Origin: an uncultured Rickettsiales bacterium
GTDB taxonomy: Bacteria; Pseudomonadota; Alphaproteobacteria; Rickettsiales; SXRF01
Length of the DNA stretch: 64,000 bases
NCBI GenBank assembly: GCA_964535825.1
Contig: CAZHUC010000004.1
Span: 6,928-70,927 of the forward strand
Direction of reading: 5' to 3'
Numbering within the stretch: position 1 is the stretch's first letter; each line of letters begins with the position of its first letter. Both the position numbers and the translations under genes were made by a program. Below are positions 13,124-62,065 of the stretch, in pieces. The notes below the pieces were generated by a model. The model did no database searches, was not told where the DNA came from, and worked only from the letters and a program-made list of their open reading frames with translations.

Positions 13124-13200
13124 TAATGCTGAAGTTATTGAAACTTTCTGCTATAATAGCCTAGTATGCCGCCACTAACTATTGGTTATACGGTGATTTC

Positions 13201-25796: not shown

Positions 25797-26447
25797 TTAA
25801 CTGCGGTTGCGCGGCTTGCGTGGATCACGCCAGATGAATAATTCCTTATCGATCTTTTTGCCGAATTCTGCATTGCTGAGTGCAACACTGGTGATCTGAT
25901 TGGTGGCATCAGTGATCACCATATTGCGGATGAGCAGTGGTGATTTTGTGAACTCAAGCAGTAGCTGGCCTTCCGTTGGCTTTTTGCGTTCTGCTATAGA
26001 TATGCGGATAACGCCTTCCTTGTCTTCGAGCGAAAGTATGCCTACATCATCGCCGAATTTGATCTTCTCGCGTGACATAAAACTGATGATGGAATCATTC
26101 AGCGGAATATGGTTCACCTGTTCCAGCTCGTAATCATAGAACACGAGCTCGATACCATTTGCCACCATCAGGATCGGGGTGGGCGGGTTATATTGCCAGC
26201 GCATCTTGCCCGGCCGCTCCATGTAGAATTTACCGGAGGTCAGTGTGCCATCAGGTGCGACCTGATTGAAGTTCGCCACGATGGAGTTGAGGCTGGTGAG
26301 ATAGGCCTCGATGTTAGCAATGAGGGTTTTATTCTTTTCAATCTCTTCTGCACTGATGAAAGAAACGGCAGGTTTATCTGCCGCCATCAATGGTGGTGCG
26401 CAGCAGATACTTAGCAGGATACATGTAGCCGTGAGTAATTTTCTCAT
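25797..26447 (-). CDS. lolA: Outer-membrane lipoprotein carrier protein
   Basis: 216 aa with a signal peptide. FNQVAPDGTLTSGKFYMERPGKMRWQY is the LolA core. Immediately downstream of ftsK, as in many proteobacteria. Confidence 0.75.
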   Translation of the reverse strand: MRKLLTATCILLSICCAPPLMAADKPAVSFISAEEIEKNKTLIANIEAYLTSLNSIVANFNQVAPDGTLTSGKFYMERPGKMRWQYNPPTPILMVANGIELVFYDYELEQVNHIPLNDSIISFMSREKIKFGDDVGILSLEDKEGVIRISIAERKKPTEGQLLLEFTKSPLLIRNMVITDATNQITSVALSNAEFGKKIDKELFIWRDPRKPRNRS

Positions 26448-28807
26448 GAATCCTCGCGCACCAGCACTTCGCGTTTGCCCACATGATTTGCAGGGCCGAC
26501 GATGCCTTCACGCTCCATTTGCTCAATGATGCTGGCTGCACGGTTATACCCGATCTTCAGGCAGCGCTGGATATAGCTGGTTGAGGCCTTGCGGTCACGG
26601 CTGACAATGGAAACCGCCTGATCGTACAGCTCATCCTTCTCACCGCCATCACCACTGAACATGTCTTCTTGTTCTTCATCACGGGTGACATCTTCAATAT
26701 AGGTAGGCACACCTTGTTCTTTCAGATGGTCAACAATTTGCTCGACTTCTTTGTCGGATATGAATGGACCATGCACACGGGTGATGCGACCACCACCAGC
26801 CATATATAACATATCACCCTGACCCAGCAGTTGTTCTGCGCCCTGATCGCCAAGAATGGTGCGCGAATCGATACGGCTGGTCACCTGGAAGCTGATACGG
26901 GTAGGGAAGTTGGCTTTGATAACGCCGGTGATGACATCCACCGAAGGACGTTGTGTCGCCATGATGATATGGATACCAGCAGCACGCGCCATCTGCGCCA
27001 AGCGCTGGATAGAGCCTTCAATTTCTTTGCCGGCCACGATCATCAGGTCGGCCATTTCGTCCACGATTACCACGATGAATGGCAGTGCTTCCATTTCCAA
27101 AGGTACTTCTTCGATAATGGCTTCGCCCGTTTCCGGATCAAAGCCGGTCTGCACCGTGCGGGTAAGCTGGTGACCTTTGGCTTTGGCTTCATGGATCTTC
27201 TTGTTGTACCCGTCGATATTGCGCACGCTGAGATTGCTCATCATGCGGTAACGGTTCTCCATTTCCTTCACTGTCCATTTCAGGGCGACCACCGCTTTGC
27301 CCGGCTCAGTCACCACAGGGGTGAGCAGGTGGGGGATGCCATCATAAATGGAAAGTTCGAGCATCTTGGGATCGATCATGATGAACTTACATTCATCAGG
27401 TGTGAGGCGGTAGAGCAGGGACGCGATCATGGTATTGACCGCAACGGATTTACCCGAGCCGGTCGTACCTGCCACCAACAAATGAGGCATGCGTGCAAGG
27501 TCTACTATAATGGGTGCACCGCCAATGTCCTTGCCGAGTGCCATAGGTAGTTTTGCATCGGTTGAATCGAAGGCATCATTTTCCAGCATCTCGCGGAAAT
27601 AAACTGTCTCACGGTTGATGTTCGGTAATTCGATGCCGATCGCATTGCGGCCGGGGATAACGGCGATACGCGCCGATACCGCACTCATAGAGCGAGCAAT
27701 ATCATCGGACAGGCCAACCACACGCGATGATTTTGTGCCCGGTGACGGCTCGAGTTCATACAGCGTTACTACAGGGCCGGGGCGAATCTCGACGATGTTC
27801 CCATGCACACCAAAATCCTGCAGCACGCTTTCCAGCAATTTTGCATTTTGTGTTAGCGCGGATTCTGACAACTGGTTCTTGCGGCTTTTCGGTGGCGGGG
27901 TCAGTAATTTTATCGGTGGCAGTTCAAAGTCACCCTTAGGTAAGGCCAGCGCAGATTGTCCGCGCGCAGATTTTGCTGACCTTTCCATGGTCGGCATATT
28001 GCTTTTTTTGCTTACGCGAGGTTGTGGCTTCTCTTCATCCTCGATGTATTCTTCATATTCGTCTTCGTCTTCATCATCGTCATCTTCGTCATCATATTCA
28101 GCGTACTCATCATCACGACGCCAGAACATGATCTTCCCCATGAGAGACTGAAATAAAGAAGGCTCATCATACTCGGTGACGATAGTCTGTTGGCGACGGC
28201 GCGGCAGCAATGCGACCAACACGGTGCATACGGCCAGCACGCCATGTTTCGCGGTACGGATAATGGACTTCCACTCCGACCAGCTCATGCCGAATGCCAG
28301 TGAGATCATCACGATGGATACAAAACCCGTCATGCTGACAAAGAATGGGTTTTTAAAGAGCTTGTAGAAAGATTCCTGAATGATCGCACCTATTGAACCA
28401 CCAAATCCGCTGGTCACTGGCCAGGCGAGAGGAGGTTCGATGAGTGCCAACAAAGCTGAGCAACTAACTAGTGATGTCATCAGCAGTGTGAATCTCAGCC
28501 AAAGGAACGATACGGTCTGGCCGCGCAATAATTTTGTGCCCCAAGCAAATGGTACTAAGACCAGGAGTGCCGAAGCCATACCCAGAAGCTGCAAGCACAG
28601 GTCAGCGATCAGTGCGCCGGTGTAGCCACCAGTATTTTCGATCTGGTCAGCAGTGGCACGATTGAAAGAAGGATCAGCCTGATTATAGCTGATGAGGCAT
28701 ACGAATAAAAAAACAGAGACTATACAAAGCGATATACCCGCCAATGTTTTAAGTGGGGTGCGGTTGCTCTGCGATTTTGGCTGTCTTAAGATAGGTTTTT
28801 GTGCCAT
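26444..28807 (-). CDS. ftsK: DNA translocase FtsK
   Basis: N-terminal TM domain, acidic linker, motor domain (HLLVAGTTGSGKS, VVIVDEMADL, ATQRPSVDVITG) and a gamma winged helix (STSYIQRCLKIGYNRAA). The start is taken at the ATG at 28807. Confidence 0.93.
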   Translation of the reverse strand: MAQKPILRQPKSQSNRTPLKTLAGISLCIVSVFLFVCLISYNQADPSFNRATADQIENTGGYTGALIADLCLQLLGMASALLVLVPFAWGTKLLRGQTVSFLWLRFTLLMTSLVSCSALLALIEPPLAWPVTSGFGGSIGAIIQESFYKLFKNPFFVSMTGFVSIVMISLAFGMSWSEWKSIIRTAKHGVLAVCTVLVALLPRRRQQTIVTEYDEPSLFQSLMGKIMFWRRDDEYAEYDDEDDDDEDEDEYEEYIEDEEKPQPRVSKKSNMPTMERSAKSARGQSALALPKGDFELPPIKLLTPPPKSRKNQLSESALTQNAKLLESVLQDFGVHGNIVEIRPGPVVTLYELEPSPGTKSSRVVGLSDDIARSMSAVSARIAVIPGRNAIGIELPNINRETVYFREMLENDAFDSTDAKLPMALGKDIGGAPIIVDLARMPHLLVAGTTGSGKSVAVNTMIASLLYRLTPDECKFIMIDPKMLELSIYDGIPHLLTPVVTEPGKAVVALKWTVKEMENRYRMMSNLSVRNIDGYNKKIHEAKAKGHQLTRTVQTGFDPETGEAIIEEVPLEMEALPFIVVIVDEMADLMIVAGKEIEGSIQRLAQMARAAGIHIIMATQRPSVDVITGVIKANFPTRISFQVTSRIDSRTILGDQGAEQLLGQGDMLYMAGGGRITRVHGPFISDKEVEQIVDHLKEQGVPTYIEDVTRDEEQEDMFSGDGGEKDELYDQAVSIVSRDRKASTSYIQRCLKIGYNRAASIIEQMEREGIVGPANHVGKREVLVREDS

Positions 28808-28926
28808 AGCTTCTACATGTGGTATGATACTCGTATGAATAGCAGAAAATAATGTGTTATGAAAAGAGTTTGTTAATAAAAAACAGTCTTTACAGAACAT
28901 TTACTTTATTTTTCTAAAAAAGAAGT

Positions 28927-31364: not shown

Positions 31365-31685
31365 ATGAACTTACAGAAAATGATGAAACAGGCGCAAGAT
31401 ATGCAGCGCAAGATCACCGAATTGCAGGCATCGCTGGAAGCACAGGAAGTGGATGGTACGGCAGGTGGTGGCGTGGTGAAGGTGCGTGTTACTGGCAAAC
31501 ACCGTCCGGTTTCTGTAAGCATCGATGCCAGCCTGATGAAAGCTGAAGAAAAAGATATGCTGGAAGACCTGCTGGTTGCCGCGCTGAATGATGCGCATGA
31601 TAAGATCGATGCAACCTTCACCGATGAAATGAGCAAGGTCACAAGCGGTATGAACCTGCCGCCGGGAATGAAGCTGCCATTCTAA
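31365..31685 (+). CDS. ybaB: Nucleoid-associated protein YbaB/EbfC
   Basis: 106 aa with MMKQAQDMQRKI...GGGVVKV..TG. Canonical dnaX-ybaB-recR order. Confidence 0.9.
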   Translation: MNLQKMMKQAQDMQRKITELQASLEAQEVDGTAGGGVVKVRVTGKHRPVSVSIDASLMKAEEKDMLEDLLVAALNDAHDKIDATFTDEMSKVTSGMNLPPGMKLPF

Positions 31686-31694
31686 GGGATCTTT

Positions 31695-32288
31695 GTGGCA
31701 CATAACGATATCGAAGAATTGATCCGTCTATTCTCCAAGCTGCCGGGCTTAGGCCCGCGTTCGGCGCGTCGTGCGGTGTTGCACCTGATGCGCAATAAGG
31801 AGCAGGTGATGAAGCCGCTGGAGCATGCGCTGGGTCGTGCGATCGAGAATATCCGCAGTTGTGCATCCTGTGGCAATCTTGATATTTCCGACCCGTGCCA
31901 TATCTGTACCGACGCGAGGCGGGATGTTTCCGTTATTTGCGTGGTGGAAGAGGTGGCCGATCTATGGGCGATCGACCGCTGCAATTTATTCAAAGGCCAG
32001 TATCATGTGTTGGGCGGTACGCTTTCTGCCATTGATGACCGTGGGCCTTCGCAGCTCAATATCGAATCACTGATACGGCGCGCAGCAAGTGAGGAGGTTA
32101 AGGAAATCATCCTTGCCACCAATGCGACCATTGAAGGGCAGACCACCGCCCATTACCTCACCACGCGGCTGGCAGTGTGTAATGTCAGCATTTCGCGGCT
32201 TGCACAGGGCATTCCTATGGGCGGTGAACTGGATTACCTCGATGACGGCACACTGGGTGCCGCCCTCAAGGCAAGGTTACCGTTCTAA
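31695..32288 (+). CDS. recR: Recombination protein RecR
   Basis: 197 aa with a GTG start. LPGLGPRSARR HhH, a C4 zinc finger (CASCGNL...CHIC) and a Toprim domain. Confidence 0.93.
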   Translation: MAHNDIEELIRLFSKLPGLGPRSARRAVLHLMRNKEQVMKPLEHALGRAIENIRSCASCGNLDISDPCHICTDARRDVSVICVVEEVADLWAIDRCNLFKGQYHVLGGTLSAIDDRGPSQLNIESLIRRAASEEVKEIILATNATIEGQTTAHYLTTRLAVCNVSISRLAQGIPMGGELDYLDDGTLGAALKARLPF

Positions 32289-33017
32289 TTAAAGCGACAG
32301 TTTCTTGAAGATTCTCTCCGGGATGTGGCAGATGATCAGCATGATGAACCGCCAGAAGAACGGCACATACAGCACATCCTTATTCTTTTCTGAAGCATCT
32401 ACAATTTTGCGTGCCACATATTCTGGGCTGGCGATAAGCGGGCTGTTCATACTCCATGTCATTGGGGTATCGATAAAGCCTGGTTTTACGGTCATCACAT
32501 GTACGCCATGTTTTGCAAACCGATTACGCAGACCTGATGCGAAAGCGGTGAGTGCAGCTTTTGCAGCGCCATAAGGATAATTGCTTTGCCGGCCACGGTC
32601 GCCAGCCACTGAGGAAATAATGGTAACCTTACCGCCATGCCTGCCTGCCAGTTGGTCACAGGCGGCCTGTGCAATTTGCGCAGGTATGATGAAATTGAGG
32701 TATGTGATATAAGCGATGGATCTCTGCATGGCGCTGGTGTCGGTGGGCAAATATCCCAACACGATCACCACTTCATCTACATGTCCAAGTGCCTGAACCA
32801 GTTTATCCGCAGAGAATCCTTCTTCTGCCACATCGGCATGTATGGTTTTGCACATTGTGCCATGACGCACCGTGATGTCACCGGCCAATAAGTCCAGCTC
32901 TACTTCATCGCGTGCGACCAGCACAAGGCTGTGCCCACGACTGGCGAGCTCACGGCTCATTGCCTGTGCCAGCGAAGATGTCGCGCCAATGATGGCTATC
33001 TCACTTTTTTGGCTCAG
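32289..33017 (-). CDS. DprE2-like short-chain dehydrogenase (polyprenyl-phospho-2-keto-ribose reductase candidate), probable CTG start
   Basis: SDR with YGAAKAA (YxxxK). The C-terminus RFIMLIICHIPERIFKKLSL closely resembles the recalled M. tuberculosis DprE2 tail [20 protein letters not shown]. The Rossmann motif IAIIGATSS lies upstream of the first ATG (32960). A GAGGAG Shine-Dalgarno sits 7 nt before the CTG at 33017. Confidence 0.8.
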   Translation of the reverse strand: MSQKSEIAIIGATSSLAQAMSRELASRGHSLVLVARDEVELDLLAGDITVRHGTMCKTIHADVAEEGFSADKLVQALGHVDEVVIVLGYLPTDTSAMQRSIAYITYLNFIIPAQIAQAACDQLAGRHGGKVTIISSVAGDRGRQSNYPYGAAKAALTAFASGLRNRFAKHGVHVMTVKPGFIDTPMTWSMNSPLIASPEYVARKIVDASEKNKDVLYVPFFWRFIMLIICHIPERIFKKLSL

Positions 33018-34635
33018 GGGGATTCTCCTCTTTCTTGGCTAGGCTTGCGATATATTCCTGTTGCAGGTGATCATAATATCCCAGGTTGAATAATACTATG
33101 GTTTTAAGACGCTCCCTGTCCAGCAGATCTCCAGAGACAATTAATCTGAGTTTTTCATAATAATTTGCCAATGAGGTATGCATGTGTTCAACAGACCCTG
33201 TCTTCACTGCATAACGATATCCCTTAGGGATATCCCGGCGGAAATGGCCGATATAGAAATTTTGTTTATCCGCTGCCGGCAGGCGGGCAAGTAGCGGGTC
33301 TGCAAGACCAAGCTCATCGATATATTTAATATGGTTGCCAGCGTAATAGGGGCTCATACCGATATAATAGACTTTTTTGACCTCAACTTTTTCTTCGCCC
33401 ATCTTCTTGCCGCCTTCAACAAATGGGTAATTACCTTCCTTGCGCAACTTGAGCGGATATTTCTTCACCACGATCCGGTTGGCAGAAAATACAAAGCGGG
33501 CATCAATCACCCTACCTCTCAAAGGAATGCAGGATTTACAATGTCTGCGCAATTCCTGCAGCATTTGCGGCGCAAAATAGGTGATGCAGAACAGGCAGGC
33601 GAAAGCAAAAATAATATCCGGACGGATACGTTCCGGCAGCACAAAGAACCACAGGCAAATGGCAGCAAACACCGGCAATGCCCAGAACCTGCCAGCCATA
33701 TAATCACCCCCGATATACATGACATAAATGGAATACAGCGAAATACCTGTGGCCATAAAAGCCGGCAGGTAATCCATGCCGGTTGGTATCTTAAGCCAGC
33801 GATAGAAACGCTTTGGCAGCAGGAACAAGATGGTAGCCATCAGGTATATTGCGCCTGTCAGATCCCAGATAAACAGGTATTTTGCGTAATGAATGCCTTG
33901 GGAAAGATATTGCCACAGGGTCATATCCGTGCCGAGCTTGGCGTATTTGGTGTTAGGGAATAAGAACCCGTAATAGAACAGGGAGAAGGAAAGCCATGCG
34001 ATGAGTGGAAGCAAGCCAGCAAATATCTGCCCCCACCTTAAAGGGCGTTGTTTTATGACCAGATACACAAACACAGGCGCGTAAAGCAATATACTGTCGA
34101 GCCTGTTCACCAATGCCAGTGCCGTAATGGTTGTGCAGAAAAACCAGAAGAACCGGTGTTCCCGCCGCTGGAAGATGATAAAGCAGAACAGTGAGAAAAG
34201 CAGGTAACTCAGCGGATTCTCAAGACCTGAGGACGTATAGTCCACGAAAGATTTTGAAGCAAACAGGGGAACAAAGAAGAAAAAGACGGTAATCGGCACA
34301 GATCGATGGCCGGCATATACGGTGATGAGTATAGCAAATGCTGAACAGAGCACCGACAATACCACTGAGCCGACAAACAGATTTTCCCAGATGGCATATA
34401 TGGGAATATGCAGCAACAGCCATAACGGATGCGTGTAGGCCTGCACCCGCTCGTATGGATTCCAGCGCAGGCCATGCCCCTGAAAGAAATTCTCTATGAC
34501 CCGGAAGCTGATATAGGCATCTTCAGATACCCAGCCAATCGAGGCGATATAGAAAAAGAATGCCACCCAAAGCGCATAGATGATGGCAAGCTCGAGCGTG
34601 TTGTAGCGCGGTTGATTCAGCTTGCCTGCTTCCAT
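33001..34635 (-). CDS. GT-C-fold polytopic membrane glycosyltransferase (candidate arabinofuranosyltransferase)
   Basis: 544 aa with at least 10 hydrophobic segments. Acidic first-loop motif WVSEDAYISFRV, as in polyprenyl-P-sugar-dependent GT-C enzymes. Sandwiched between the DprE1-like and DprE2-like genes and overlaps both. Confidence 0.65.
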   Translation of the reverse strand: MEAGKLNQPRYNTLELAIIYALWVAFFFYIASIGWVSEDAYISFRVIENFFQGHGLRWNPYERVQAYTHPLWLLLHIPIYAIWENLFVGSVVLSVLCSAFAILITVYAGHRSVPITVFFFFVPLFASKSFVDYTSSGLENPLSYLLFSLFCFIIFQRREHRFFWFFCTTITALALVNRLDSILLYAPVFVYLVIKQRPLRWGQIFAGLLPLIAWLSFSLFYYGFLFPNTKYAKLGTDMTLWQYLSQGIHYAKYLFIWDLTGAIYLMATILFLLPKRFYRWLKIPTGMDYLPAFMATGISLYSIYVMYIGGDYMAGRFWALPVFAAICLWFFVLPERIRPDIIFAFACLFCITYFAPQMLQELRRHCKSCIPLRGRVIDARFVFSANRIVVKKYPLKLRKEGNYPFVEGGKKMGEEKVEVKKVYYIGMSPYYAGNHIKYIDELGLADPLLARLPAADKQNFYIGHFRRDIPKGYRYAVKTGSVEHMHTSLANYYEKLRLIVSGDLLDRERLKTIVLFNLGYYDHLQQEYIASLAKKEENPPEPKK

Positions 34636-35975
34636 TCCAGTCTTTCAGACATCAGAGAGGTGAAGCGGTTATGCAGGTCGGCATCATGGATGATATCACG
34701 CCATGCATGCGCAGCCTCACCATACATGGTGTAGAAATCATAAGCAGAAAGCATAGCATCCTTGGCGAGATACACCCTGCCGCCCAGTTCGGCGACACTA
34801 CGGTTCAGTATCGGAATAAAATTTTGTACGGCCGGAGTGTTAGGGAAATCCAGCGCAAGGCTATAACCCCTTTGGGAAAATGTAAGCAAGCCTTTGCCCT
34901 GCCGGTGGTACTTCAACACCGCAAGGAATGAGAATAGCTTGTGCTGGTGGATGAGCGACAGGATATCCTGTAGTGCTGCAACAACCGAGGGTGATTCAGG
35001 AATGATGCACTGATACTGGAAAAATCCCCTGCGGCCATATAACTTATTCCAGTTGCCGATGGTATCCAGTGGATGGAAAAAATTATTGAAATCCACTTTT
35101 TCCTCAAGGCGCTCCTGGCTGTATCGCTTGAAGCGAACATAGTTATATAGTTTCATCACCAAAGGATTCAGGAGGAAAGCAGGTGCGAAGACCGGCACGC
35201 TGACCTTAGGTTTGGCAGATGCATAGTCTTTTAATGTCGCGCCGCCATTGCCAGCGGCTATGTGGTTCGCTGCTTCAAATACACCGCGCCCAAGCTGTGC
35301 GCCCTTTGATGAATGATCGATCCAGCCCACCATGTAATCGGAGTTGTCGCGGAAATGTTCAAAAGCGGCGACCAGCGCTTGCAGTGAATTGACCTTATAT
35401 GTTGTGGTGGAAAGAGATGCCGATGTAATGGGCTTTAATTTGAATGTAACCTCTTCGATGATGCCGGTCATGCCCATGCCGCCGGCAGTTGCCCAGAAGA
35501 GGTCGCTGTAATGGTCTGGGGAGCATTCGATCGTTTTTCCGTCAGCCATTCTTAGCTTGATCGAAAGGACATGTTCGGCAAATTCGCCCTCACGGAAATG
35601 ATTCTTGCCGTGCACATTGCAGGCGAAGCATCCGCCAAGGGTGACATGGCGCGTACCCGGAATAACCGCAGGTATCCAGCCTTTTGGAATGGTGATATCC
35701 ATTACTTCAGCGAGGCTCACACCTGCCTGAGCTTTCAGGATGCCTTGTGTTGCATCGAATTCGATAAAATGGTTGAGCCGTGTGGTACAGACCACGCCGG
35801 AGGGTTGCAAAGACGCATCGCCATACGACCTGCCGAGGCCACGCGCGATCACAGGCTGGTTGTTTGCATCAAGGATATCTTTTATTTCACGCAGCTTTTC
35901 AGGCCGCCATGCACTGCACTCGGCAACAGGCGCATGTCCCCATCCATATAACATCTGGCGTTTAACAGGCAGCAT
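34617..35975 (-). CDS. DprE1-like FAD-dependent oxidoreductase (polyprenyl-phospho-ribose 2'-oxidase candidate)
   Basis: 452 aa. GWGHAP, ARGLGRSYGD and IPAVIPGTRHVTLGGCFACNVHGKNH parallel the recalled M. tuberculosis DprE1 motifs GWGR, ARGLGRSYGD and [25 protein letters not shown]. Confidence 0.85.
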   Translation of the reverse strand: MLPVKRQMLYGWGHAPVAECSAWRPEKLREIKDILDANNQPVIARGLGRSYGDASLQPSGVVCTTRLNHFIEFDATQGILKAQAGVSLAEVMDITIPKGWIPAVIPGTRHVTLGGCFACNVHGKNHFREGEFAEHVLSIKLRMADGKTIECSPDHYSDLFWATAGGMGMTGIIEEVTFKLKPITSASLSTTTYKVNSLQALVAAFEHFRDNSDYMVGWIDHSSKGAQLGRGVFEAANHIAAGNGGATLKDYASAKPKVSVPVFAPAFLLNPLVMKLYNYVRFKRYSQERLEEKVDFNNFFHPLDTIGNWNKLYGRRGFFQYQCIIPESPSVVAALQDILSLIHQHKLFSFLAVLKYHRQGKGLLTFSQRGYSLALDFPNTPAVQNFIPILNRSVAELGGRVYLAKDAMLSAYDFYTMYGEAAHAWRDIIHDADLHNRFTSLMSERLEWKQAS

Positions 35976-36784
35976 TATGGTTTTATCAGCTGGTGTGCTT
36001 TTGCAAAGTCTAAAACATGCGCTGAAATAACGTTCCTGTCAAAATCATTATGGCCTACATGCTCAAAAAAGATGGCTTTCTTGGGTTCGTTTGCCGCCTC
36101 AAGCAGGGCTTTACCATGTGAGATCGGAATAACGGCATCTTTTGCGCCGTGTAAGATAAGCACAGGGCAGGTGACCTTTTGGATCTTTTTCAGCGAATTG
36201 AAATGGTCTTTGATCAGCAAATGCACGGGAATATAAAAATATATCTCGGCTGCGCGGTTGGCCACCGATGTGTAAGGCGCTTCAAGCACCAGGCCGGCCG
36301 GTTTATGTTCAGTTGCCATCTGCACGGCAACGCCACTTCCCAATGATTCACCATAATAAATAACGTCATCATTAGGTATGTGGAGTTGAGAATGTAAGTA
36401 TGACAGGGCTGCGCGTGCGTCGCGGTAAATGCCACGCTCGGTGGGTGCGCCAGTGCTTTTGCCATAGCCCCTGTAGCTTAAGGCCAGGACACCAAATCCT
36501 GCATTGCTGAGGGCGGCAAAGTTGCCGGCGCGATTGGCAATGTTCGCAGCATTACCATGAAAATACATGATGGTAGGAAAGCCCGGCTGAGCCTTCTTGT
36601 ACCATAGCTGTATCCTGACTCCATCGGAGCTCACAGCCATAACATCTTCATATTCCTGCAAGCCATAGGTTGCAGGCGAGCTTATATTCTTGTCCGGAAG
36701 ATATAAAAGCTTGCGCTGGAAAATATACATCATCACCAAAAGGCAGATGTAAACCAGTAATATTCCGAGAATGATCTTAGACAT
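35975..36784 (-). CDS. Membrane-anchored alpha/beta hydrolase
   Basis: 269 aa with an N-terminal TM, the GESLGS nucleophile elbow and a C-terminal HVGHND. TAATG overlap with the DprE1-like gene. Confidence 0.75.
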   Translation of the reverse strand: MSKIILGILLVYICLLVMMYIFQRKLLYLPDKNISSPATYGLQEYEDVMAVSSDGVRIQLWYKKAQPGFPTIMYFHGNAANIANRAGNFAALSNAGFGVLALSYRGYGKSTGAPTERGIYRDARAALSYLHSQLHIPNDDVIYYGESLGSGVAVQMATEHKPAGLVLEAPYTSVANRAAEIYFYIPVHLLIKDHFNSLKKIQKVTCPVLILHGAKDAVIPISHGKALLEAANEPKKAIFFEHVGHNDFDRNVISAHVLDFAKAHQLIKP

Positions 36785-36827
36785 GTTTACCTAGAGGGGA
36801 TTACTACGATCATGAAACACCAAGCAT

Positions 36828-36849
36828 GTTAATGACTGGTTAATGACTG
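36828..36849 (+). promoter_or_regulatory. Tandem 11-bp direct repeat (gttaatgactg x2) that creates a TTAA-N7-TTAA CtrA-type box
   Basis: TTAA 36829-36832, 7-nt spacer tgactgg, TTAA 36840-36843. About 40 nt upstream of the cpaA start, in the divergent intergenic region. Confidence 0.4.
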
Positions 36850-36880
36850 GTTGATATATTTTTGAAAAAATGAGGGTCTT

Positions 36881-37366
36881 ATGCTCATCGCCGTATTTCT
36901 TATCATCGCAATGTTGCTCGTGTTGTATTTCGATATCACGCGCTACATCATACCGAACTGGCTCTGTGGGTTATTGCTGCTGCTTTACCCGATAGCTGTA
37001 TACATGGCGGCTGTGCCTGTTGATTGGCAGAAGGGGCTCATGGCGCTCGCGATCATGTTCGCCATTGGATATGTAGCTTTCGCCCGTAACTGGATGGGCG
37101 GTGGTGACGTCAAACTTCTGGTGGCTTGCAGCGTGTGGGTCGGGCTGGCCAGATTAATGGATTTTGCATTCACCGTTGCCATTCTGGGCGGGGTGCTTTC
37201 GGTTGTACTTTATCTGGTACGCAAGTTACCCCCTGTGGTGAATCGTGCACAGAAGTTGCCACGCATCATGCGTGTAGGTGAGCCGGTGCCATATGGCATT
37301 GCAATCGCCTTTGCATTCTTCCTGATGATGAAAATGGGGAATATCCCTGCACTTGCTATGCCTTAG
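36881..37366 (+). CDS. cpaA: Prepilin peptidase (A24 family, CpaA-type)
   Basis: 161 aa, polytopic. DITRYIIPN and GGGDVKLL carry the two catalytic Asp of A24 peptidases. Confidence 0.8.
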   Translation: MLIAVFLIIAMLLVLYFDITRYIIPNWLCGLLLLLYPIAVYMAAVPVDWQKGLMALAIMFAIGYVAFARNWMGGGDVKLLVACSVWVGLARLMDFAFTVAILGGVLSVVLYLVRKLPPVVNRAQKLPRIMRVGEPVPYGIAIAFAFFLMMKMGNIPALAMP

Positions 37367-38240
37367 ACGAATCTGACGGCGGTGGTGCAGCTTCACGTTG
37401 TGTAACGATCTGACCTCGTATCTGCACGATCTGATAGTTGAGTTCTGCACCAAAAATAAAAATGATGTTGCAGATATAAAAGAAGAGCAGGGCGGCGATG
37501 ATGCCACCAAGACTGCCATAAATAAGATTCACCTGATCGAAATTGGCAAGGTAACTTGCGAACAGGGTGGCTGCGCAAACCCAGAGGGCTACCACAAGGA
37601 TCGCACCCGGCACTACAGCCAGCAAACTTTGCTTGATATTAGGTATGAGATAATAAATGCAGCACACCGACAGAAAAATAAACCCGATGCTAAGCAGCAT
37701 GAATAGATTGTGAAGGCTTGCTCCGTCATCAGGTGTGAGTTTGAGTTGAGTGAGTCCTTGCAGGTAATCCAATGCAAAAGGTGCAGCAAGAACCAGTATC
37801 ATTCCGCCTATTAATATTGAGGTGAATACAAATAATTGCAGGATGCTGAGTGAGCGCCTGAACCAGTAGGCAGGCGGCGTTCCAACATGATACGCGCGGT
37901 TCAGAATGGTGCGCAGGCCTTCCACAGCAGAAGATGCTGTCCATATCGCGCCAAGGATCGATATGGTGAGTAAGCCTTGTGGTGGCCCTGATATGATCTC
38001 CTGTATACGCGGCTCTAAAGACCTTGAGATACTGTAAGGAAGGGCTTGCAACAATGTGGTGATGAAGGCCGCACCGGTTTCACCTTGTCCGGCAACGCCA
38101 ATGATGGAGAACACGAACACCAGAAAGGGAAACATGGCAAGCAGGCCAAGGAATGCCAGATAGCCGGCATGCTCGATGCCATCATGGTTGATGGTATTTT
38201 CAGCTGCTTTCCAAATGCCTTTTGCGAACTTCTTCAGCAT
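37356..38240 (-). CDS. YihY/BrkB family membrane protein
   Basis: 294 aa with GYLAFLGLLAMFPFLVF...YGSLGGIIAALLFFYI, typical of YihY. Confidence 0.8.
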   Translation of the reverse strand: MLKKFAKGIWKAAENTINHDGIEHAGYLAFLGLLAMFPFLVFVFSIIGVAGQGETGAAFITTLLQALPYSISRSLEPRIQEIISGPPQGLLTISILGAIWTASSAVEGLRTILNRAYHVGTPPAYWFRRSLSILQLFVFTSILIGGMILVLAAPFALDYLQGLTQLKLTPDDGASLHNLFMLLSIGFIFLSVCCIYYLIPNIKQSLLAVVPGAILVVALWVCAATLFASYLANFDQVNLIYGSLGGIIAALLFFYICNIIFIFGAELNYQIVQIRGQIVTQREAAPPPSDSSKA

Positions 38241-39290: not shown

Positions 39291-39542
39291 TTAAGCGTCT
39301 GGATTGGTGGGTTTGAGGAAGTGTTTTATAACCACAGCAAAACTGCAGAGGCTGGCACACAAGAACATGAGTGCTGTACCATTCTCGCCACGGCTGATAC
39401 TATCGACAGCGATTACCGCGCAGGTCATGCCGCCAAGCAGGCTGTATACCAGTTTATCATTGCGCGAGATGTTCTTTTTCTGCGCCAGCAGCATGCAGGC
39501 AATAGCAAGAATAACAGCAGCGATCGTGATGATTGGGCTCAT
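39291..39542 (-). CDS. Small three-helix membrane protein
   Basis: 83-aa hydrophobic ORF between aguB (ATGA overlap) and aguA (5-nt gap). No recognised family. Confidence 0.5.
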   Translation of the reverse strand: MSPIITIAAVILAIACMLLAQKKNISRNDKLVYSLLGGMTCAVIAVDSISRGENGTALMFLCASLCSFAVVIKHFLKPTNPDA

Positions 39543-40542: not shown

Positions 40543-40617
40543 GGCTCGGTAGCTCAGTGGTAGAGCAGGGGAATCATAATCCCTTGGTCGGGGGTTCAAA
40601 TCCCTCCCGAGCCACCA
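40543..40617 (+). tRNA. tRNA-Met (anticodon CAU), elongator type. A lysidine-modified tRNA-Ile2 cannot be excluded.
   Basis: 75-nt cloverleaf. Acceptor GGCTCGG/CCGAGCC, D-arm GCTC/GAGC, anticodon stem GGGGA/TCCCT with loop AUCAUAA, T-arm GGGGG-TTCAAAT-CCCTC, and an encoded CCA. The G1-C72 pair argues against an initiator. Confidence 0.9.
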
Positions 40618-40710: not shown

Positions 40711-41841
40711 ATGCAGGGTATTGTTCCGGTTCTCAAGCCAAAACTACCTGAAATTTCAGCTATTTTACCGTATCTTAAGCAGATCGATGAGAATCGCTGG
40801 TATGGTAATAATGGCCCGCTGGTCGTCGCTTTTGAGAAGCGAGTCGCTGATCTGCTGAAAGCAACGGCCGAAAGCGTCCTGATGGTGGCCAACGGCACGC
40901 TGGGCCTCACCGTAGCGCTACAGGCACTGGAAGTAAAACGTGGCGGCCTGTGTATCATGCCATCATGGACATTTACCGCAACACCCGCAGCGGCACTGGC
41001 CGCCGGGCTTGAGCCTTGCTTCATTGATGTGGACAAAGAAACGCAAGTCATCTCCGCAGAGAGCGTAAAAAAACATATCAAAGCGCTGAAGAAGCCAGTG
41101 AGTGCTGTGATGCCTGTATCTGCCTTTGGCGCGCCAATCGATGTTGCGCAGTGGGATAGATTCACAGAAGAAACCGGTATTCCTGTAGTGATCGACGCCG
41201 CAGCTGCGTTTGATAGCTTCATGAGCGGTGCAATGAAAATGGGTCGCACACCGGTGATGCTGAGTCTGCATGCTACGAAGATCTGCGGTATCGGCGAAGG
41301 CGGGCTGATGCTCACCAAGAGTGCTGACGTTGCATTCCGCCTGCGCCGCATCATCAATTTCGGGTTTGAGAATGACCGTCTGTCACATCGCATCGCCATT
41401 AATGCTAAGCCGAGTGAGTATAATGCGGCAGTAGCTATGGCCGTGCTGGATGAGTGGAAAGATATTCGCGCCGCCTGGGCAAAGGTGCAGTTGCGCTACA
41501 GAGAAAAGCTTGAAGCACACGGTATCGCCTGCTGGGTAAAACCTGATTGGGTAACGAGCACCAGTAACATAATTGTGCCTGAGCAAGCCGTGGCGCTGGC
41601 GCAACATCTGAAAGAGCAGGGCATTGACACACGTCGCTGGTGGGAAACAGGTTGTCATGTGCATCCGGCCTATCGCTCCTGCATGGTGCATGATGAATTA
41701 CCTAACACGCAGTGGCTCGGGCAATCGGTGCTTGGCATTCCTTCTGCCATGGACCTGAGTGAAGATACCCAGGATAGGGTATATGAGGCAGTGGTAAGCG
41801 GGCTTAAATCAATTAAGTCAGATTCCAGAAAATATGGCTAA
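40711..41841 (+). CDS. DegT/DnrJ/EryC1/StrS family sugar aminotransferase
   Basis: 376 aa with ANGTLGLTVAL and the PLP-lysine context LSLHATKICGIGEGG. Confidence 0.88.
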   Translation: MQGIVPVLKPKLPEISAILPYLKQIDENRWYGNNGPLVVAFEKRVADLLKATAESVLMVANGTLGLTVALQALEVKRGGLCIMPSWTFTATPAAALAAGLEPCFIDVDKETQVISAESVKKHIKALKKPVSAVMPVSAFGAPIDVAQWDRFTEETGIPVVIDAAAAFDSFMSGAMKMGRTPVMLSLHATKICGIGEGGLMLTKSADVAFRLRRIINFGFENDRLSHRIAINAKPSEYNAAVAMAVLDEWKDIRAAWAKVQLRYREKLEAHGIACWVKPDWVTSTSNIIVPEQAVALAQHLKEQGIDTRRWWETGCHVHPAYRSCMVHDELPNTQWLGQSVLGIPSAMDLSEDTQDRVYEAVVSGLKSIKSDSRKYG

Positions 41842-44056
41842 TCCATCTACATCTCCTGCCAATGTCGATCGTAATGATCCATGTCCATGCGGCAGTGGTA
41901 AGAAATTTAAAAAGTGCTGCATCGATAAGGTGGCTGCAGCATCCACCGCGCCATCACTGAATATCGGCCTTACCCTGCAACAAGCGGCAGCTGCACTCAA
42001 TACCGGGCGCTTGGATATTGCAGAAATTGCGCTTGCCAATGTGCTGCACGTACAACCTAATAATACGGATGCATTGAATTTTGCTGCGTATGTCTGTTTC
42101 CAACGCAAGCAATATGATACCGCGGCCGGGTATATCAACAAAGCAATAAGCCTGAATAACAAGAACGGATTATATTTCTTCACCGCCGCATTGATCTCCA
42201 AGGCATGCAAGCGGTTTGATGAAATGGAAGTGCTATTGCTCAAAGCGCTTGCGCTTAAGCCAGCGGGCTATATTTCACAGATATACGCTAATCTTGGCGA
42301 CTGCATGCATGAAAAACGTAACATGCCTGCGGCAATCAGTTATTACACAAAGGCGATCGAGGCGGATGCAAAGAACGCTAAAGCCTATTTCTATCGTGGT
42401 ATGGCGCGTTATGAATTTGAGGGAGCAAACTCAACCTATGAAATTGATGCCAATAAAGGCATCGAGCTTTCACAAAAGTCATCGGATATGCTGTGCAAAT
42501 TAGCAACGATCTATAACAGTGAGCAGGATTTCGAGAAAGCACATCTGCTGTTGCAAGATGCGGTATCCGTTAGTCCGGATAATGAAGAGGCGTCATTCTT
42601 CCATGCGCTGACCTTTTATGAGCGTGGGGATGTTGAAACTGCAAAAAATATCTTTGCAAAAGTATTGACCAGACACCCGCTGAGTATTCGCACACAGGTG
42701 AGTGATGCTTTCCTGCTGCCGGTCATCGTTCATGATAATAATGAGATAGAATCATGGCGTACGCGTTTGATGTCGCGGGTGCAACAGCTGATCGATAATA
42801 AGGTCATTTTGCATGAACCTGAGCGTCAGGGACTGTATCTGCCCTTTTATCAAGGGTATCATGGGCGTGATAATAAGGTGATGATGCAGAAATTGTCGGA
42901 ATTCTTCCTGATATGCTGTCCATCGGTGCAATACACCGCACCACATTGCACCAAACCGCGAGATAAAAGTAAAAAGATACGTATTGGGTTCGTTTCTGAA
43001 TATTTCCATTCAAAACTGCTTACACAATTCTTTGGTCCGCTCATAGAGGGATTGGCAGCGGATGCTGAATGCGAAGTGGTGATATTTGCTTCCTCAGCGC
43101 GTGAGAATGACAAGGTAAAAACCTTATCAGATCAGGTTAAGAAATATGTGGTGCTGCCACTTAGCCTGCCATCCATGCAGCAGACTATTGCGCATGAGGA
43201 GATAGATATCTTGATCTATCTGGATATTGGTATGCGCCTGAATACCTATTTATTGGCACTGGCGCGGCTTGCACCGGTACAGGCGGTGATGGGTGGACAC
43301 CCACTCACCACCGGTATCCCGAACATGGATTATTTCTTCACTACAGGTAGCATGGAGGCGGAAGGCTCGCACACGCATTACACAGAAAAGCTGCTGGCTG
43401 GTGCAGATTTGCTTGCAGTGATCAAGAAGGAATATGTTGCACCGGTTGATATGACGCGCGCAGAGCTTGGGTTACCAACAGAGGATGTGCGCTTATATAC
43501 CTGTCCAGTGCTGCTATTCAAACTGCATCCGGATATGGATATGGTGTTCGAGGGTATACTCAATAAAGATCCCAAGGCGCGCATTATCTTGTTCGATAAT
43601 GGCAAGATCATCTGGCGTGAGTTGCTGGAGAAGCGTTTTGTGGATTCTATGGGCAAAGAACTTGCATCGCGCATCATATTTGTTCCATTTGCGGCAAAAG
43701 ATAAGTTCATGCATACGATGCGCGCCATGGATGCGATATTTGATACATTGCATTTCTCCTTCGGTACAACGGCATTCCTGTTGCTTGGCTCAGAAGTGCC
43801 ATTCGTGACCAAACCCGGGGAATTTTTGCGTGGCCGTGGTGCTTACGGGGTATTCAAAATGATGGGTATGCTCCATATGTCAGCAGATACCATAGATGGG
43901 TATGTTGATCTTATTGTTAAACTGGCAAATGACAAGGCGTTCTATAAGCAGGCGCAGGATGATATCCGCAAACAAAACCATCTCATCTTTGATGATTATG
44001 GGCCTGTCGATGAATTCCGTACGCATCTGAAACGTATCGCCTCCGAGATCGCATGA
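41834..44056 (+). CDS. SEC-C motif + TPR repeats + GT41 (SPINDLY/OGT-like) glycosyltransferase
   Basis: 740 aa. N-terminal NDPCPCGSGKKFKKCC (SecA-type zinc motif), about 300 aa of TPR-like repeats, and a C-terminal half with RIGFVSEYFHSKLL and LFKLHPDMDMVFEGILNKDPKARIILF, typical of bacterial GT41. Overlaps the degT-like gene by 8 nt. Confidence 0.75.
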   Translation: MANPSTSPANVDRNDPCPCGSGKKFKKCCIDKVAAASTAPSLNIGLTLQQAAAALNTGRLDIAEIALANVLHVQPNNTDALNFAAYVCFQRKQYDTAAGYINKAISLNNKNGLYFFTAALISKACKRFDEMEVLLLKALALKPAGYISQIYANLGDCMHEKRNMPAAISYYTKAIEADAKNAKAYFYRGMARYEFEGANSTYEIDANKGIELSQKSSDMLCKLATIYNSEQDFEKAHLLLQDAVSVSPDNEEASFFHALTFYERGDVETAKNIFAKVLTRHPLSIRTQVSDAFLLPVIVHDNNEIESWRTRLMSRVQQLIDNKVILHEPERQGLYLPFYQGYHGRDNKVMMQKLSEFFLICCPSVQYTAPHCTKPRDKSKKIRIGFVSEYFHSKLLTQFFGPLIEGLAADAECEVVIFASSARENDKVKTLSDQVKKYVVLPLSLPSMQQTIAHEEIDILIYLDIGMRLNTYLLALARLAPVQAVMGGHPLTTGIPNMDYFFTTGSMEAEGSHTHYTEKLLAGADLLAVIKKEYVAPVDMTRAELGLPTEDVRLYTCPVLLFKLHPDMDMVFEGILNKDPKARIILFDNGKIIWRELLEKRFVDSMGKELASRIIFVPFAAKDKFMHTMRAMDAIFDTLHFSFGTTAFLLLGSEVPFVTKPGEFLRGRGAYGVFKMMGMLHMSADTIDGYVDLIVKLANDKAFYKQAQDDIRKQNHLIFDDYGPVDEFRTHLKRIASEIA

Positions 44057-44946
44057 CGAGCCACCCGTACGCCACTGAGACGTTTGCGAATTCGCTTTCG
44101 CATTGGGGGCAGGCATGGCGAGTGGATGCCTGGAATTGTTATGTTATTAAGCGGCCAATTGCTGACGAGGCATTTGATGCTGCTGGTGTATATCCGATCA
44201 CACCTTTAGAGCCAAACATAGATATTACCGCAGGACTTTCCCAGCTGCGGGATGCTGGCTTTGTTTCGATTGTGTTAGTGTTTGATGATTTTCACAGGCC
44301 AGATCTTGTGGAATTAAAAAAGCATTTTGATGCCGTGAATGATTTTAAACCACATTATGTATATCGCCCCGATAAGGGTAAGCTCGATTATGACAGTCAC
44401 CACCGTCGTGCTGTAAAGACTGCATATAAACATGTGCGGACCGATATTATTGCGCTCAGTGACGGCCTTGATGAATGGGCACGGCTTTATGATGCACTAA
44501 CAGCAACGCTCAAATTAGAAGGTCTGCATGCGTTCCCGCATGAACATCATCAAGCCATTGCCAGTATGGAGGGTGTGATCGCTGTTGGCGCATGGCTAGA
44601 TAAAGAACTGGTTTCCTGCCATGTATGGGTGGATGATGGACAATATATGCACAGTCATCTCGTGGCCTCTAATGAGAAGGGTTATGAGTTCAGGGCTGCA
44701 TACGCAGTGAATGATACCTCCATACAGTATTTTGCTAATAGAAAACTGCTGAATTTCGGCGGCGGGGCAGGGAATATAGTGGGCAGTGACGATGGCCTTG
44801 CGCGCTTTAAGAAAGGTTTCTCAAATGATGTTGCAGGTTCGTATATCTGCGGTGTCATTCTGGACAAGGATAAATACCAGCAGTTGGTGGATGCAAGAGC
44901 TCTGTCTCAGCCAACAAACTTCTTCCCTGCTTATAGAGCACCGTAA
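44053..44946 (+). CDS. FemAB-like / GNAT (Acetyltransf_6-type) acyl- or aminoacyl-transferase
   Basis: 297 aa. C-terminal NFGGGAGNIVGSDDGLARFKKGFSN resembles FemAB-family/BioF2-like GNAT proteins. ATGA overlap with the GT41 gene. Confidence 0.55.
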   Translation: MTSHPYATETFANSLSHWGQAWRVDAWNCYVIKRPIADEAFDAAGVYPITPLEPNIDITAGLSQLRDAGFVSIVLVFDDFHRPDLVELKKHFDAVNDFKPHYVYRPDKGKLDYDSHHRRAVKTAYKHVRTDIIALSDGLDEWARLYDALTATLKLEGLHAFPHEHHQAIASMEGVIAVGAWLDKELVSCHVWVDDGQYMHSHLVASNEKGYEFRAAYAVNDTSIQYFANRKLLNFGGGAGNIVGSDDGLARFKKGFSNDVAGSYICGVILDKDKYQQLVDARALSQPTNFFPAYRAP

Positions 44947-44951
44947 GTCTG

Positions 44952-45875
44952 TTATTTCCAGACTGCGTAGCCAAAGCCCTTTGCGCCAAAATCATTCCCA
45001 TTATAGAACATATATCTCCCACCGGGGGTATCTATGATATTGGGATATGCCACCATTTGTGAATCCCATCCTTCCGAGCTCACTGGAATGCCAGCCTTAC
45101 TGTCATCGCGACGCCATTTCTTGCCATCGGTTGATGATGCATAGCCGATACGGTAACTGCCAGTGCCGCCACGGAAATCGTGGCTGCCGCGATAGCTGAA
45201 CCACATATAATATGTTCCATCTTCGAAGAATACGCTGGGGCGTGTGGTGGCTTCACCTTCTGCAGCACCCGGTATACAGCAGATATTCGGGCGTTGCCAA
45301 TCCAGCCCATTATCGGAGTGGGCATAATAGATATAATAAAGTGGCTCATATTTTTCGCCGGTCTTTACCCAATCGACACCCGATCCATACCACATTTCCC
45401 ATTTATCGCCACGCTTCACAATAGAAGGCGACATGGAGGAAAAAGGTTCACCGCGGGTGATAGAAAGCACAGGCCCTGCATAGGGACGCTCAAATGTTTT
45501 GCCGCCATCCTGACTAATGGCAAGGCCTACCGCGTTCAGATATGGCACGGTCTGGCCGCGCTGCCAGCCGGTTGTGTATAACCATACTTCGTTGCCCACA
45601 TGCAGCACGGCTGCCGGCATGATACCGAACTCATCAAATGTACCGGGTTTGCCCAGATCGAGTATCGGATTCTTATGCACATACAGGACTTTTCTGGGGT
45701 CATGAATATCGACATCCACAAATGTGACAAGGCTGGTCTGTTGTTCAGGCCGTACTGTGATATATACACGGATACGATCCTCCATCAGCAAGGCAGTCGG
45801 CACTTGCGCATATGCTTTCATCCACGGGGATTCCAGTGAAGGCCCGTAAATAAACCCGCGTTTTTCCCATGCCAT
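44952..45875 (-). CDS. Hypothetical protein, predicted beta-propeller (GH32/43/130-like fold)
   Basis: 307 aa with repeated W/Y/G-rich strand motifs (WLYTTGW, WEMWYGSG, YYMWFSY, YMFYNGND). The fold assignment is tentative. Confidence 0.45.
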   Translation of the reverse strand: MAWEKRGFIYGPSLESPWMKAYAQVPTALLMEDRIRVYITVRPEQQTSLVTFVDVDIHDPRKVLYVHKNPILDLGKPGTFDEFGIMPAAVLHVGNEVWLYTTGWQRGQTVPYLNAVGLAISQDGGKTFERPYAGPVLSITRGEPFSSMSPSIVKRGDKWEMWYGSGVDWVKTGEKYEPLYYIYYAHSDNGLDWQRPNICCIPGAAEGEATTRPSVFFEDGTYYMWFSYRGSHDFRGGTGSYRIGYASSTDGKKWRRDDSKAGIPVSSEGWDSQMVAYPNIIDTPGGRYMFYNGNDFGAKGFGYAVWK

Positions 45876-45927
45876 ATTTTTTCCTTAAACTGTCGACTTT
45901 GTGTGCAGATTATTTTATAAACCTAAT

Positions 45928-48122: not shown

Positions 48123-48343
48123 AGGCGATGCCTGTGTAAAATGGTTTCAATAGCTTTGACCGACACCATATCAGCGATCTCGTCGCCTGTCAGTTCGATA
48201 CCAAGCTCTTTCTCGATAGCCACGATGATCTCGATATGTTTAAGCGAGTCCCATTCCGGCGTGTTTTCCATAGAGGTGCTGGCGCTTACTGAGGCTTCAG
48301 GCAGCTTTAAGATGTCGGCGATCAATTTATGTATTGTATTCAT
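48119..48343 (-). CDS. Acyl/peptidyl carrier protein
   Basis: 74 aa. EWDSLKHIEIIVAIEKELGIEL carries the DSL phosphopantetheine-attachment serine. Confidence 0.8.
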   Translation of the reverse strand: MNTIHKLIADILKLPEASVSASTSMENTPEWDSLKHIEIIVAIEKELGIELTGDEIADMVSVKAIETILHRHRL

Positions 48344-48372
48344 ACGCTATTTATTCCAAATTTCAGGGCACT

Positions 48373-49893: not shown

Positions 49894-49894
49894 T

Positions 49895-50569: not shown

Positions 50570-50576
50570 GTGATCC

Positions 50577-61969: not shown

Positions 61970-62065
61970 TCTGCTATCCTTTTTGCGTATTTCGATAATT
62001 GGCAATAGTATTATCTTTTTTTAAAGAGTTAGGAAGTTAAATAGCGTTAAGAATGTGTGACAGCC

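Follow-up and report, generated by a model that had tools for sequence, protein, structure and literature searches.

The 64-kb window analysed here, that is, the whole stretch of 64,000 nucleotides (nt) from contig CAZHUC010000004.1 of an uncultured Rickettsiales bacterium, carries an operon of four minus-strand genes. In order of transcription they encode a membrane-anchored alpha/beta hydrolase, a flavin adenine dinucleotide (FAD)-dependent oxidase of the DprE1 family, a polytopic membrane protein resembling the GT-C glycosyltransferase AftB, and a DprE2-like short-chain dehydrogenase/reductase (SDR). The initial annotation had proposed a candidate polyprenyl-phospho-D-arabinofuranose pathway at this locus, made up of the DprE1/DprE2 pair and a GT-C enzyme that uses its product, and the family matches presented below support that proposal. 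The features of the locus are the following:

35975-36784, minus strand: alpha/beta hydrolase gene, 269 amino acids (aa), first in the operon
34617-35975, minus strand: DprE1-family FAD oxidase gene, 452 aa
33001-34635, minus strand: AftB-like GT-C glycosyltransferase gene, 544 aa
32289-33017, minus strand: DprE2-like SDR gene, 242 aa, counted from a CTG start (the open reading frame (ORF) from ATG only is 32289-32960)
33025-33030, minus strand: Shine-Dalgarno sequence GAGGAG, inside the 3' end of the GT-C gene, read from the sequence
36785-36880: divergent intergenic region of 96 bp between the operon and the Peptidase_A24 gene
36881-37366, plus strand: Peptidase_A24 gene (Pfam), divergent from the operon

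The translational coupling of the four genes, as first described, can be read directly from the ORFs. The hydrolase gene and dprE1 meet in a TAATG overlap at 35975, dprE1 and the GT-C gene share 19 nt (34617-34635), and the GT-C gene, with its stop codon at 33003-33001, overlaps the SDR gene by 17 nt when the latter is started at CTG. The operon is divergent from the cpaA-type prepilin peptidase gene, again as annotated, and the operon is presumed to have its promoter in the region between them. A consensus scan found one promoter-like site in it, on the plus strand only; over 31600-37500 the promoter and terminator scan gave counts no better than those of shuffled sequence. At the distal end, the stop codons of recR (plus strand) and of the SDR gene (minus strand) abut at 32288/32289 with zero intergenic bases, so that the convergent transcripts have no room for separate terminators.

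The NCBIfam DprE1 model NF053785 matched the FAD protein from profile position 2 to 448 (of 449) with 359.6 bits; the next family reached 46.6 bits. In the PDB search, DprE1 (4aut) aligned with residues 3-447 (E=4.7e-68), and the best match other than DprE1, a cytokinin oxidase (E=4.8e-11), covered the FAD domain only. The likeness to DprE1 is full-length and far above that to other VAO-family oxidases; the enzyme groups with DprE1 and not with the glycolate, D-lactate or alditol oxidases, and the DprE1 proteins of the alphaproteobacterial clade form one group in a neighbour-joining tree. All three motifs from which the assignment had been made (GWG, ARGLGRSYGD and PGTRHVTLGGCFACNVHGKNH) are present. 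In the numbering of Mycobacterium tuberculosis (Mtb) DprE1, Y60, H132, K134, Q334, Q336 and K418 are kept, and these residues are invariant in 78 aligned homologues (K418 gapped in one). On this sequence evidence we place the protein as a member of the DprE1 family, not as a demonstrable orthologue, with a predicted activity of polyprenyl-phospho-beta-D-ribofuranose 2'-oxidase. The alignment also bears out the alanine noted earlier at the position of the benzothiazinone-reactive Cys387 of the mycobacterial enzyme, and places a serine at the N385 position. This replacement was ruled out as a special trait of the window protein, alanine being the norm outside Actinobacteria; its occurrence in 70 of the 78 homologues shows that Cys387 is not a defining feature of DprE1.

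The best PDB match of the SDR was DprE2 (21gq_C; E=1.6e-26), aligned over residues 9-241 with the C-terminal tail included, ahead of the next SDR at E=8.6e-14. The resemblance of the two tails, recognised initially by eye, was thus recovered by alignment, with DprE2 as the best solved relative. The best-scoring model, PRK07102 for an unnamed SDR family, gave 230.6 bits against a cut-off of 267. The S...YxxxK motif of the family is present (SSVAG...YGAAK), and the protein is predicted to be a DprE2-like polyprenyl-phospho-2-keto-pentofuranose 2-reductase. Its first canonical start codon, the ATG at 32960, lies downstream of the Rossmann motif IAIIGATSSLA, and the SDR therefore needs an upstream start. 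The frame holds no ATG, GTG or TTG back to the stop codon at 33041-33039; the sole plausible upstream start is the CTG at 33017-33015, 7 nt downstream of GAGGAG (33030-33025). One related locus (L002; related loci are designated by L numbers) is also without ATG, GTG or TTG and has a CTG at the equivalent codon with GGAGG 6 nt upstream, and the remaining relatives examined start their SDR at ATG. Because of the GAGGAG site and the equivalent CTG in L002, we accept the CTG as the putative start, as initially suggested along with the 17-nt overlap, giving an SDR of 242 aa; the orthologues in relatives are 242-256 aa long and also overlap the GT-C gene.

The 544-aa membrane protein had been taken for a GT-C enzyme with an acidic first-loop motif (SEDAY), and it proved to be AftB-like specifically. 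AftB (9dlf_C) was its sole PDB sequence match at E<=10 (E=4.5e-8), and the AftB model NF041481 its sole NCBIfam match, at 28.6 bits against a cut-off of 1050. The protein had no Pfam match, TPR included, and a weak match to Pfam AftB_C was found in its relatives. An AlphaFold (AF2) model built from 36 homologues reached a mean local confidence (pLDDT) of 89.7 and a predicted template-modelling score (pTM) of 0.91. When this model was searched with Foldseek, AftB was the clear top match (9dlf, E=9.5e-13; 9dlh, E=2.4e-11; TM 0.65-0.69), with oligosaccharyltransferase (OST), ArnT, ALG9 and Emb following at E=1e-3 or worse and OST and ArnT at TM 0.41-0.49.

In the AftB structure, D62 is the catalytic nucleophile, and T91, E172, R221, T274 and R372 contact the donor (PMC12041299). 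These six residues align with D39, T68, E139, R178, T229 and R316 of the window GT-C, all of which are invariant or nearly so in the 36 homologues. SEDAY aligns with the DD motif of AftB, the first Asp being replaced by Glu (ED, 38-39). The N-terminus is cytoplasmic, and both the loop with ED(38-39), which follows the first transmembrane helix, and a C-terminal domain of residues ~370-544 are periplasmic. The two proteins accordingly share the fold and the contacts to phosphate and sugar, and in both the first periplasmic helix carries the catalytic Asp at its tip (PMC12041299); they differ in ED in place of DD and in the smaller periplasmic domain of the window protein (544 versus about 630-670 aa in all). 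None of the genes that build arabinan (Emb, AftA-D) was seen; a single GT-C gene lies between the epimerase genes in the window, and two GT-Cs occur in the related genome GCA_041447075.1. One or two GT-Cs and the lack of an arabinan rule out an arabinan terminus as the acceptor. We regard the GT-C, on its sequence, as a distant member of the AftB family, not an AftB orthologue, with a different acceptor, and predict it to be an arabinofuranosyltransferase dependent on polyprenyl-phospho-arabinofuranose.

The arrangement recurs across a clade. The closest relatives are all uncultured Alphaproteobacteria or metagenome-assembled genomes (MAGs) labelled 'Rickettsiales', in keeping with the alphaproteobacterial-type genome inferred at the outset. 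The operon occupies the same site, between the A24 peptidase gene and recR, with overlapping junctions, in more than 12 of these genomes (L002-L010, L012, L162, L164, L167 and GCA_041447075.1). In these relatives as in the window, dprE1 and dprE2 flank the GT-C gene and the frames overlap, and the operon proteins are 52-64% identical to their orthologues across the clade, with catalytic residues kept.

We consider it likely that the operon supplies and uses a lipid-linked D-arabinofuranose (D-Araf) donor. From the observed family membership, catalytic-residue conservation, translational coupling and conservation across the clade, we infer each chemical step of the scheme, together with its lipid carrier, linkage and acceptor. 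A phosphoribosyltransferase and a phosphatase, neither of them encoded in the window, would make polyprenyl-phospho-beta-D-ribofuranose, probably on undecaprenyl phosphate. The DprE1-like flavoenzyme would oxidise the lipid-linked ribose at C2', and the DprE2-like SDR would reduce the 2'-keto intermediate to the arabino configuration. After flipping of the donor to the periplasm, the AftB-like GT-C would move D-Araf onto a periplasmic acceptor, with Asp39 in the first periplasmic loop acting in the transfer while Arg178 and Arg316 hold the phosphate. Since the GT-C agrees with AftB in its catalytic and donor-site residues, the transfer may be retaining and the linkage beta.

Several observations weigh against this scheme. 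Both epimerase enzymes score below the equivalog cut-offs of their models: the 359.6 bits of the FAD protein compare with a cut-off of 500 for NF053785, and the DprE2 model NF053786 gives the SDR 129.4 bits against 250. The FAD protein is 33% identical to M. smegmatis DprE1, and structural alignment of the GT-C with AftB gives an identity of about 17-18%. The related locus L169 has an operon of hydrolase, DprE1 and DprE2 with an ATGA junction and no GT-C gene. Most AftB-like homologues in other phyla have no DprE1 or DprE2 within 10 kb, so that the family may not be Araf-specific. In addition, neither a UbiA-type phosphoribosyltransferase nor a 5-phosphatase, and no GtrA, SMR or MATE flippase, was found in the 64-kb window or, for 15 related loci, within 8-10 kb. 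The phosphoribosyltransferase was sought by hydrophobicity and NDxxD screens, by Pfam, and by tblastn with Firmicute, metagenomic and Rhizobium/Azospirillum queries. All of these came back empty for the window, where the enzyme had been reported missing from the start; 43 metagenomic UbiA proteins and those of Rhizobium and Azospirillum likewise found no tblastn match in the window or related loci, and the window has no small polytopic ORF besides that of the A24 peptidase. This gap weakens the proposed pathway without refuting it, because unlinked genes are normal in such systems, the GT-C and the donor cluster of Pseudomonas aeruginosa being separate.

The AftB-like GT-C family itself is large. 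It comprised at least 2,787 clusters (50% identity, E<=1e-30), or 12,350 at E<=1e-3, and spans Chloroflexota, Ignavibacteriota, Myxococcota, Planctomycetota, bacteria of the candidate phyla radiation (CPR) and Firmicutes. A general co-location with DprE1/DprE2 was rejected: beyond L002-L010 and L012, only L015 had both within 10 kb. Two telling cases in which an AftB-like GT-C does lie near pentofuranose-donor genes are an Aneurinibacillus and a Peregrinibacteria locus. In the former (L015, 1867-14449; Aneurinibacillus aneurinilyticus ATCC 12856), UbiA, DprE1 and DprE2 genes are accompanied by a divergent PAP2 gene, two paralogous membrane proteins of 441/461 aa, a 640-aa AftB-like GT-C and an S-layer-homology protein, which suggests D-Araf on a cell-wall or S-layer glycan. 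When the Aneurinibacillus UbiA was searched against a set of 5.8 billion proteins, all 120 matches listed were from Firmicutes. In the latter (L043, 9962-14523; a Candidatus Peregrinibacteria MAG), the AftB-like GT-C has as neighbours a GalE-like NAD epimerase, a transporter of the SMR family and a phosphoribosyltransferase of the UbiA type; a CPR bacterium thus seems to have all parts of a three-component pentofuranose system whose epimerase is not a DprE enzyme.

The co-occurrence of an AftB-like GT-C with a non-DprE epimerase in L043 indicates that donor sugars may vary within the family, and the pair and its GT-C could then act on another lipid-linked sugar that does not start from phosphoribosyl pyrophosphate (PRPP), such as a different pentofuranose, or carry out the 2-epimerisation of a non-ribose substrate. 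The lack of phosphoribosyltransferase, phosphatase and flippase genes in the 64 kb and in the flanks of the relatives, and the scores below the equivalog cut-offs, would fit such a substrate. We nevertheless hold this to be improbable: the DprE1 catalytic and substrate residues that were checked are invariant, most homologues adjoin a UbiA phosphoribosyltransferase, the residues of AftB that contact the sugar (E172 and T274) are conserved in the GT-C, and the donor-synthesis and GT-C genes of P. aeruginosa are also unlinked (bioRxiv 10.1101/2020.04.19.049825).

The role of the hydrolase was considered separately. The 269-aa protein has an N-terminal hydrophobic anchor and the motifs HG and GESLG (nucleophile elbow), with an Asp in GAKD and a His in GHND; it matches Pfam Hydrolase_4 (1.1e-18) and Abhydrolase_1 (1.5e-17), and its nearest solved relative is a generic MARTX ABH domain. 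The protein might be a fourth component, modifying the arabinosylated product as an acyltransferase or esterase, in loose analogy to the mycobacterial alpha/beta-hydrolase mycolyltransferases that acylate AftB-made arabinan termini; in mycobacteria, mycolate attaches at the AftB product (PMC12041299). The intact Ser-Asp-His triad, the membrane anchor visible in the sequence and the TAATG or similarly tight junction with dprE1 kept in relatives all agree with this idea. However, L168 keeps a hydrolase gene at the same position with the DprE1, GT-C and SDR genes gone, hydrolases are not recurrent beside DprE1 or AftB-like genes elsewhere, and the similarity is to alpha/beta hydrolases in general, so that we think such a part in the pathway unlikely. 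The operon membership of the hydrolase gene, as initially described, is upheld by its tight coupling, while a dedicated partnership is not, since L168 has the hydrolase alone; with L169 carrying hydrolase, DprE1 and DprE2 without a GT-C, the hydrolase was downgraded as a dedicated partner. The adjacency of the A24 peptidase and hydrolase genes is kept in every related locus, L168 included. The hydrolase gene standing alone in L168 assigns it and the A24 peptidase gene to a conserved backbone, of which the arabinose module is the variable part. On this sequence comparison the hydrolase gene belongs to the backbone and is probably co-transcribed; its product probably has no part in the pathway, the gene being a resident neighbour.

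The same synteny bears on a possible connection with pili. P. aeruginosa uses DprE1/DprE2 homologues to provide D-Araf for its pilin (bioRxiv 10.1101/2020.04.19.049825), and a Peptidase_A24 gene lies 96 bp upstream of the operon on the opposite strand, and so in every related locus, so that one might read the prepilin peptidase as a clue to the arabinosylation of a pilin (Flp/Tad or type IV), as by P. aeruginosa TfpW. We judge this very unlikely. The adjacency of A24 peptidase and hydrolase genes persists in L168 without DprE1, GT-C and SDR, the window genes examined include no gene for a pilin or another Tad component, and the GT-C is AftB-like with no TPR match in Pfam, whereas TfpW has a C-terminal TPR region and adjoins pilA. 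The window GT-C thus has neither of the two features of the TfpW type, a C-terminal TPR domain and an adjacent pilin gene. Of the hint initially drawn from cpaA, the presence of the gene next to the operon stands; its functional link to pilin was rejected as backbone synteny. That the module is decaying and the operon non-functional, the SDR having lost its start as the lack of ATG, GTG or TTG ahead of the Rossmann motif might indicate, is scarcely credible given the strong GAGGAG 7 nt from an in-frame CTG, the same CTG position with its own Shine-Dalgarno sequence in L002, and four intact ORFs with clade-wide identity of 52-64% and catalytic residues kept.

To place the pair in a wider setting, we surveyed 80 metagenomic loci whose DprE1 homologues share 36-43% identity with the window protein; many of the contigs were short, and the counts are minima. 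A DprE2-like SDR was adjacent in 61 of the 80 loci and a UbiA-type phosphoribosyltransferase in 48. A small membrane protein, taken as GtrA-like from its size and position, was found in 10/80, a protein resembling HAD-family phosphatases in sequence in 5/80, and an AftB-like GT-C near DprE1 in 1/80. DprE1 homologues also occur on 65 PLSDB plasmids, 34 of them from Rhizobium, and the annotation 'Decaprenyl-phosphate phosphoribosyltransferase' is found in Paenibacillus, Tumebacillus and Bacillus cereus. The premise of the initial annotation that homologues outside Corynebacteriales are sporadic is therefore outdated; alphaproteobacterial DprE1 homologues are common, modules of DprE1 and DprE2 are frequent in metagenomes, on Rhizobium plasmids and in Firmicutes, and the systems have been called 'widespread' (PMC11127046).

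Compared with the mycobacterial decaprenylphosphoryl-arabinose (DPA) pathway (Rv3806c, Rv3807c, DprE1 Rv3790, DprE2 Rv3791, Rv3789 and AftB), the locus has the same two-enzyme 2'-epimerisation pair and the DprE2 C-terminal tail. It differs in the Gram-negative host, in the lipid, presumably undecaprenyl and not decaprenyl, and in having dprE1 and dprE2 on either side of the GT-C gene; genes for a phosphoribosyltransferase, a phosphatase or an Rv3789-like protein are not found nearby. The general logic has been set out by Kelly et al. in 2024 (PMC11127046), who described PRPP-derived lipid-linked pentofuranose donors, DprE1/DprE2 homologues for Araf and a periplasmic GT-C. Such three-component pentofuranose glycosylation systems act on Gram-negative O antigens, as in Citrobacter youngae O1/O2 (PMC11127046), and the scheme proposed for the window follows the same logic of a polyprenyl-phospho-pentofuranose donor, optional epimerases and a periplasmic GT-C that adds the sugar. 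The C. youngae-type systems cluster a PRP-phosphoribosyltransferase fusion, a MATE flippase and a GT136 GT-C, whereas the window clusters only the epimerase pair with an AftB-type GT-C; of the three components, the phosphoribosyltransferase/5-phosphatase and the flippase are missing from the 64 kb and the 15 related loci. The GT-C in the epimerase operon is of the AftB type and not of the founding family GT136, and it is predicted to use a pentofuranose donor. Kelly et al. note that beta-linked Araf side chains are not known (PMC11127046); a retaining enzyme of the AftB type would be a candidate for making one.

The pilin D-Araf system of P. aeruginosa PA7/Pa5196 consists of PsPA7_6245-6249 plus TfpW (bioRxiv 10.1101/2020.04.19.049825). 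Both it and the window have proteobacterial DprE1/DprE2 homologues, and its functional DprE1 is also ~33% identical to Mtb DprE1 (bioRxiv 10.1101/2020.04.19.049825). Its cluster includes a phosphoribosyltransferase, a phosphatase and a GtrA-like protein that the window lacks, and its transferase TfpW, which has a TPR domain and adjoins pilA, builds alpha-1,5 oligomers on pilin. Plasmids of cultured Alphaproteobacteria have related clusters, for instance in Rhizobium leguminosarum (pR132503) and Azospirillum thermophilum, in which the DprE1 homologues show 37-38% identity and a DprE2-like SDR is adjacent, the genes being annotated only as FAD-binding oxidoreductase and SDR. These clusters carry the phosphoribosyltransferase and GtrA in cis, followed by polytopic proteins without BLAST similarity to the window GT-C. 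In the Rhizobium locus (L170, 7010-14351; R. leguminosarum WSM1325 plasmid pR132503), a HAD-UbiA fusion, GtrA, DprE1-like and DprE2-like genes precede those of two polytopic 'hypothetical proteins' (519 and 540 aa). The two were examined as AftB-like candidates and discarded, having no BLAST similarity to the window GT-C, the 519-aa protein being also without a Pfam match; they may represent an uncharacterised transferase family.

The surroundings of the operon are those of an ordinary chromosome: metK, queC, lolA, ftsK, exoD, the signal recognition particle (SRP) RNA gene, dnaX, ybaB and recR precede it, and beyond it lie the genes for the A24 peptidase, BrkB/YihY, agmatine deiminase, N-carbamoylputrescine amidase and tRNA-Met, then a sugar-modification island, purB and pheST. 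The island (40711-51584) adjoins tRNA-Met (40543-40617) and encodes a DegT-type aminotransferase, a 740-aa SEC-C + TPR + GT41 protein, a FemAB-like protein, a 307-aa protein without assigned function, a Stf0 sulfotransferase, two methyltransferases, an SDR, an AMP-dependent ligase and a hexapeptide acyltransferase; in the relative L167, too, the pair of DegT and TPR-GT41 genes adjoins this backbone. An 83-aa hydrophobic ORF lies at 39291-39542 (minus strand) between the N-carbamoylputrescine amidase and agmatine deiminase genes, and in L001, L164, L167 and L169 the equivalent position has a called gene of 83-98 aa. FtsK (26444-28900, minus strand) has a long acidic low-complexity insert (…DDEYAEYDDEDDDDEDEDEYEEYIEDEE…) separating its membrane and motor domains. 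An ankyrin-repeat protein is encoded at 61163-62005 (minus strand), a Rick_17kDa_Anti family gene is present in L168 at 13181-13747, and the related MAGs have contigs of up to 1.4 Mb; together these give a hint that the lineage may be host-associated.

D-Arabinofuranose is best known from the mycobacterial wall, of which it is the hallmark sugar, and several drug targets in tuberculosis are based on it. The locus described here adds a further lineage to the non-actinobacterial users of the DprE1/DprE2 route. The general scheme is already published; what differs here is the AftB-type GT-C between dprE1 and dprE2, the chromosomally fixed operon and the uncultured lineage. The inserted transferase is of the AftB type and probably retaining. 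The arrangement provides genomic evidence tying the AftB-type transferases, with thousands of unstudied members in many phyla, to lipid-linked pentofuranose donors. More tentatively, dprE1-GT-C-dprE2 might serve as a Rosetta stone that links the AftB-like GT-C family to such donors, in a lineage that would decorate a core envelope molecule (lipopolysaccharide or another glycan) with beta-linked D-Araf by a retaining mechanism, a possibility we raise while thinking it less than even. To our knowledge, beta-linked D-Araf has been documented so far only at mycobacterial arabinan termini. If the GT-C is retaining like AftB, it would be the first enzyme put forward as a candidate for beta-linked D-Araf in the envelope of a Gram-negative bacterium.

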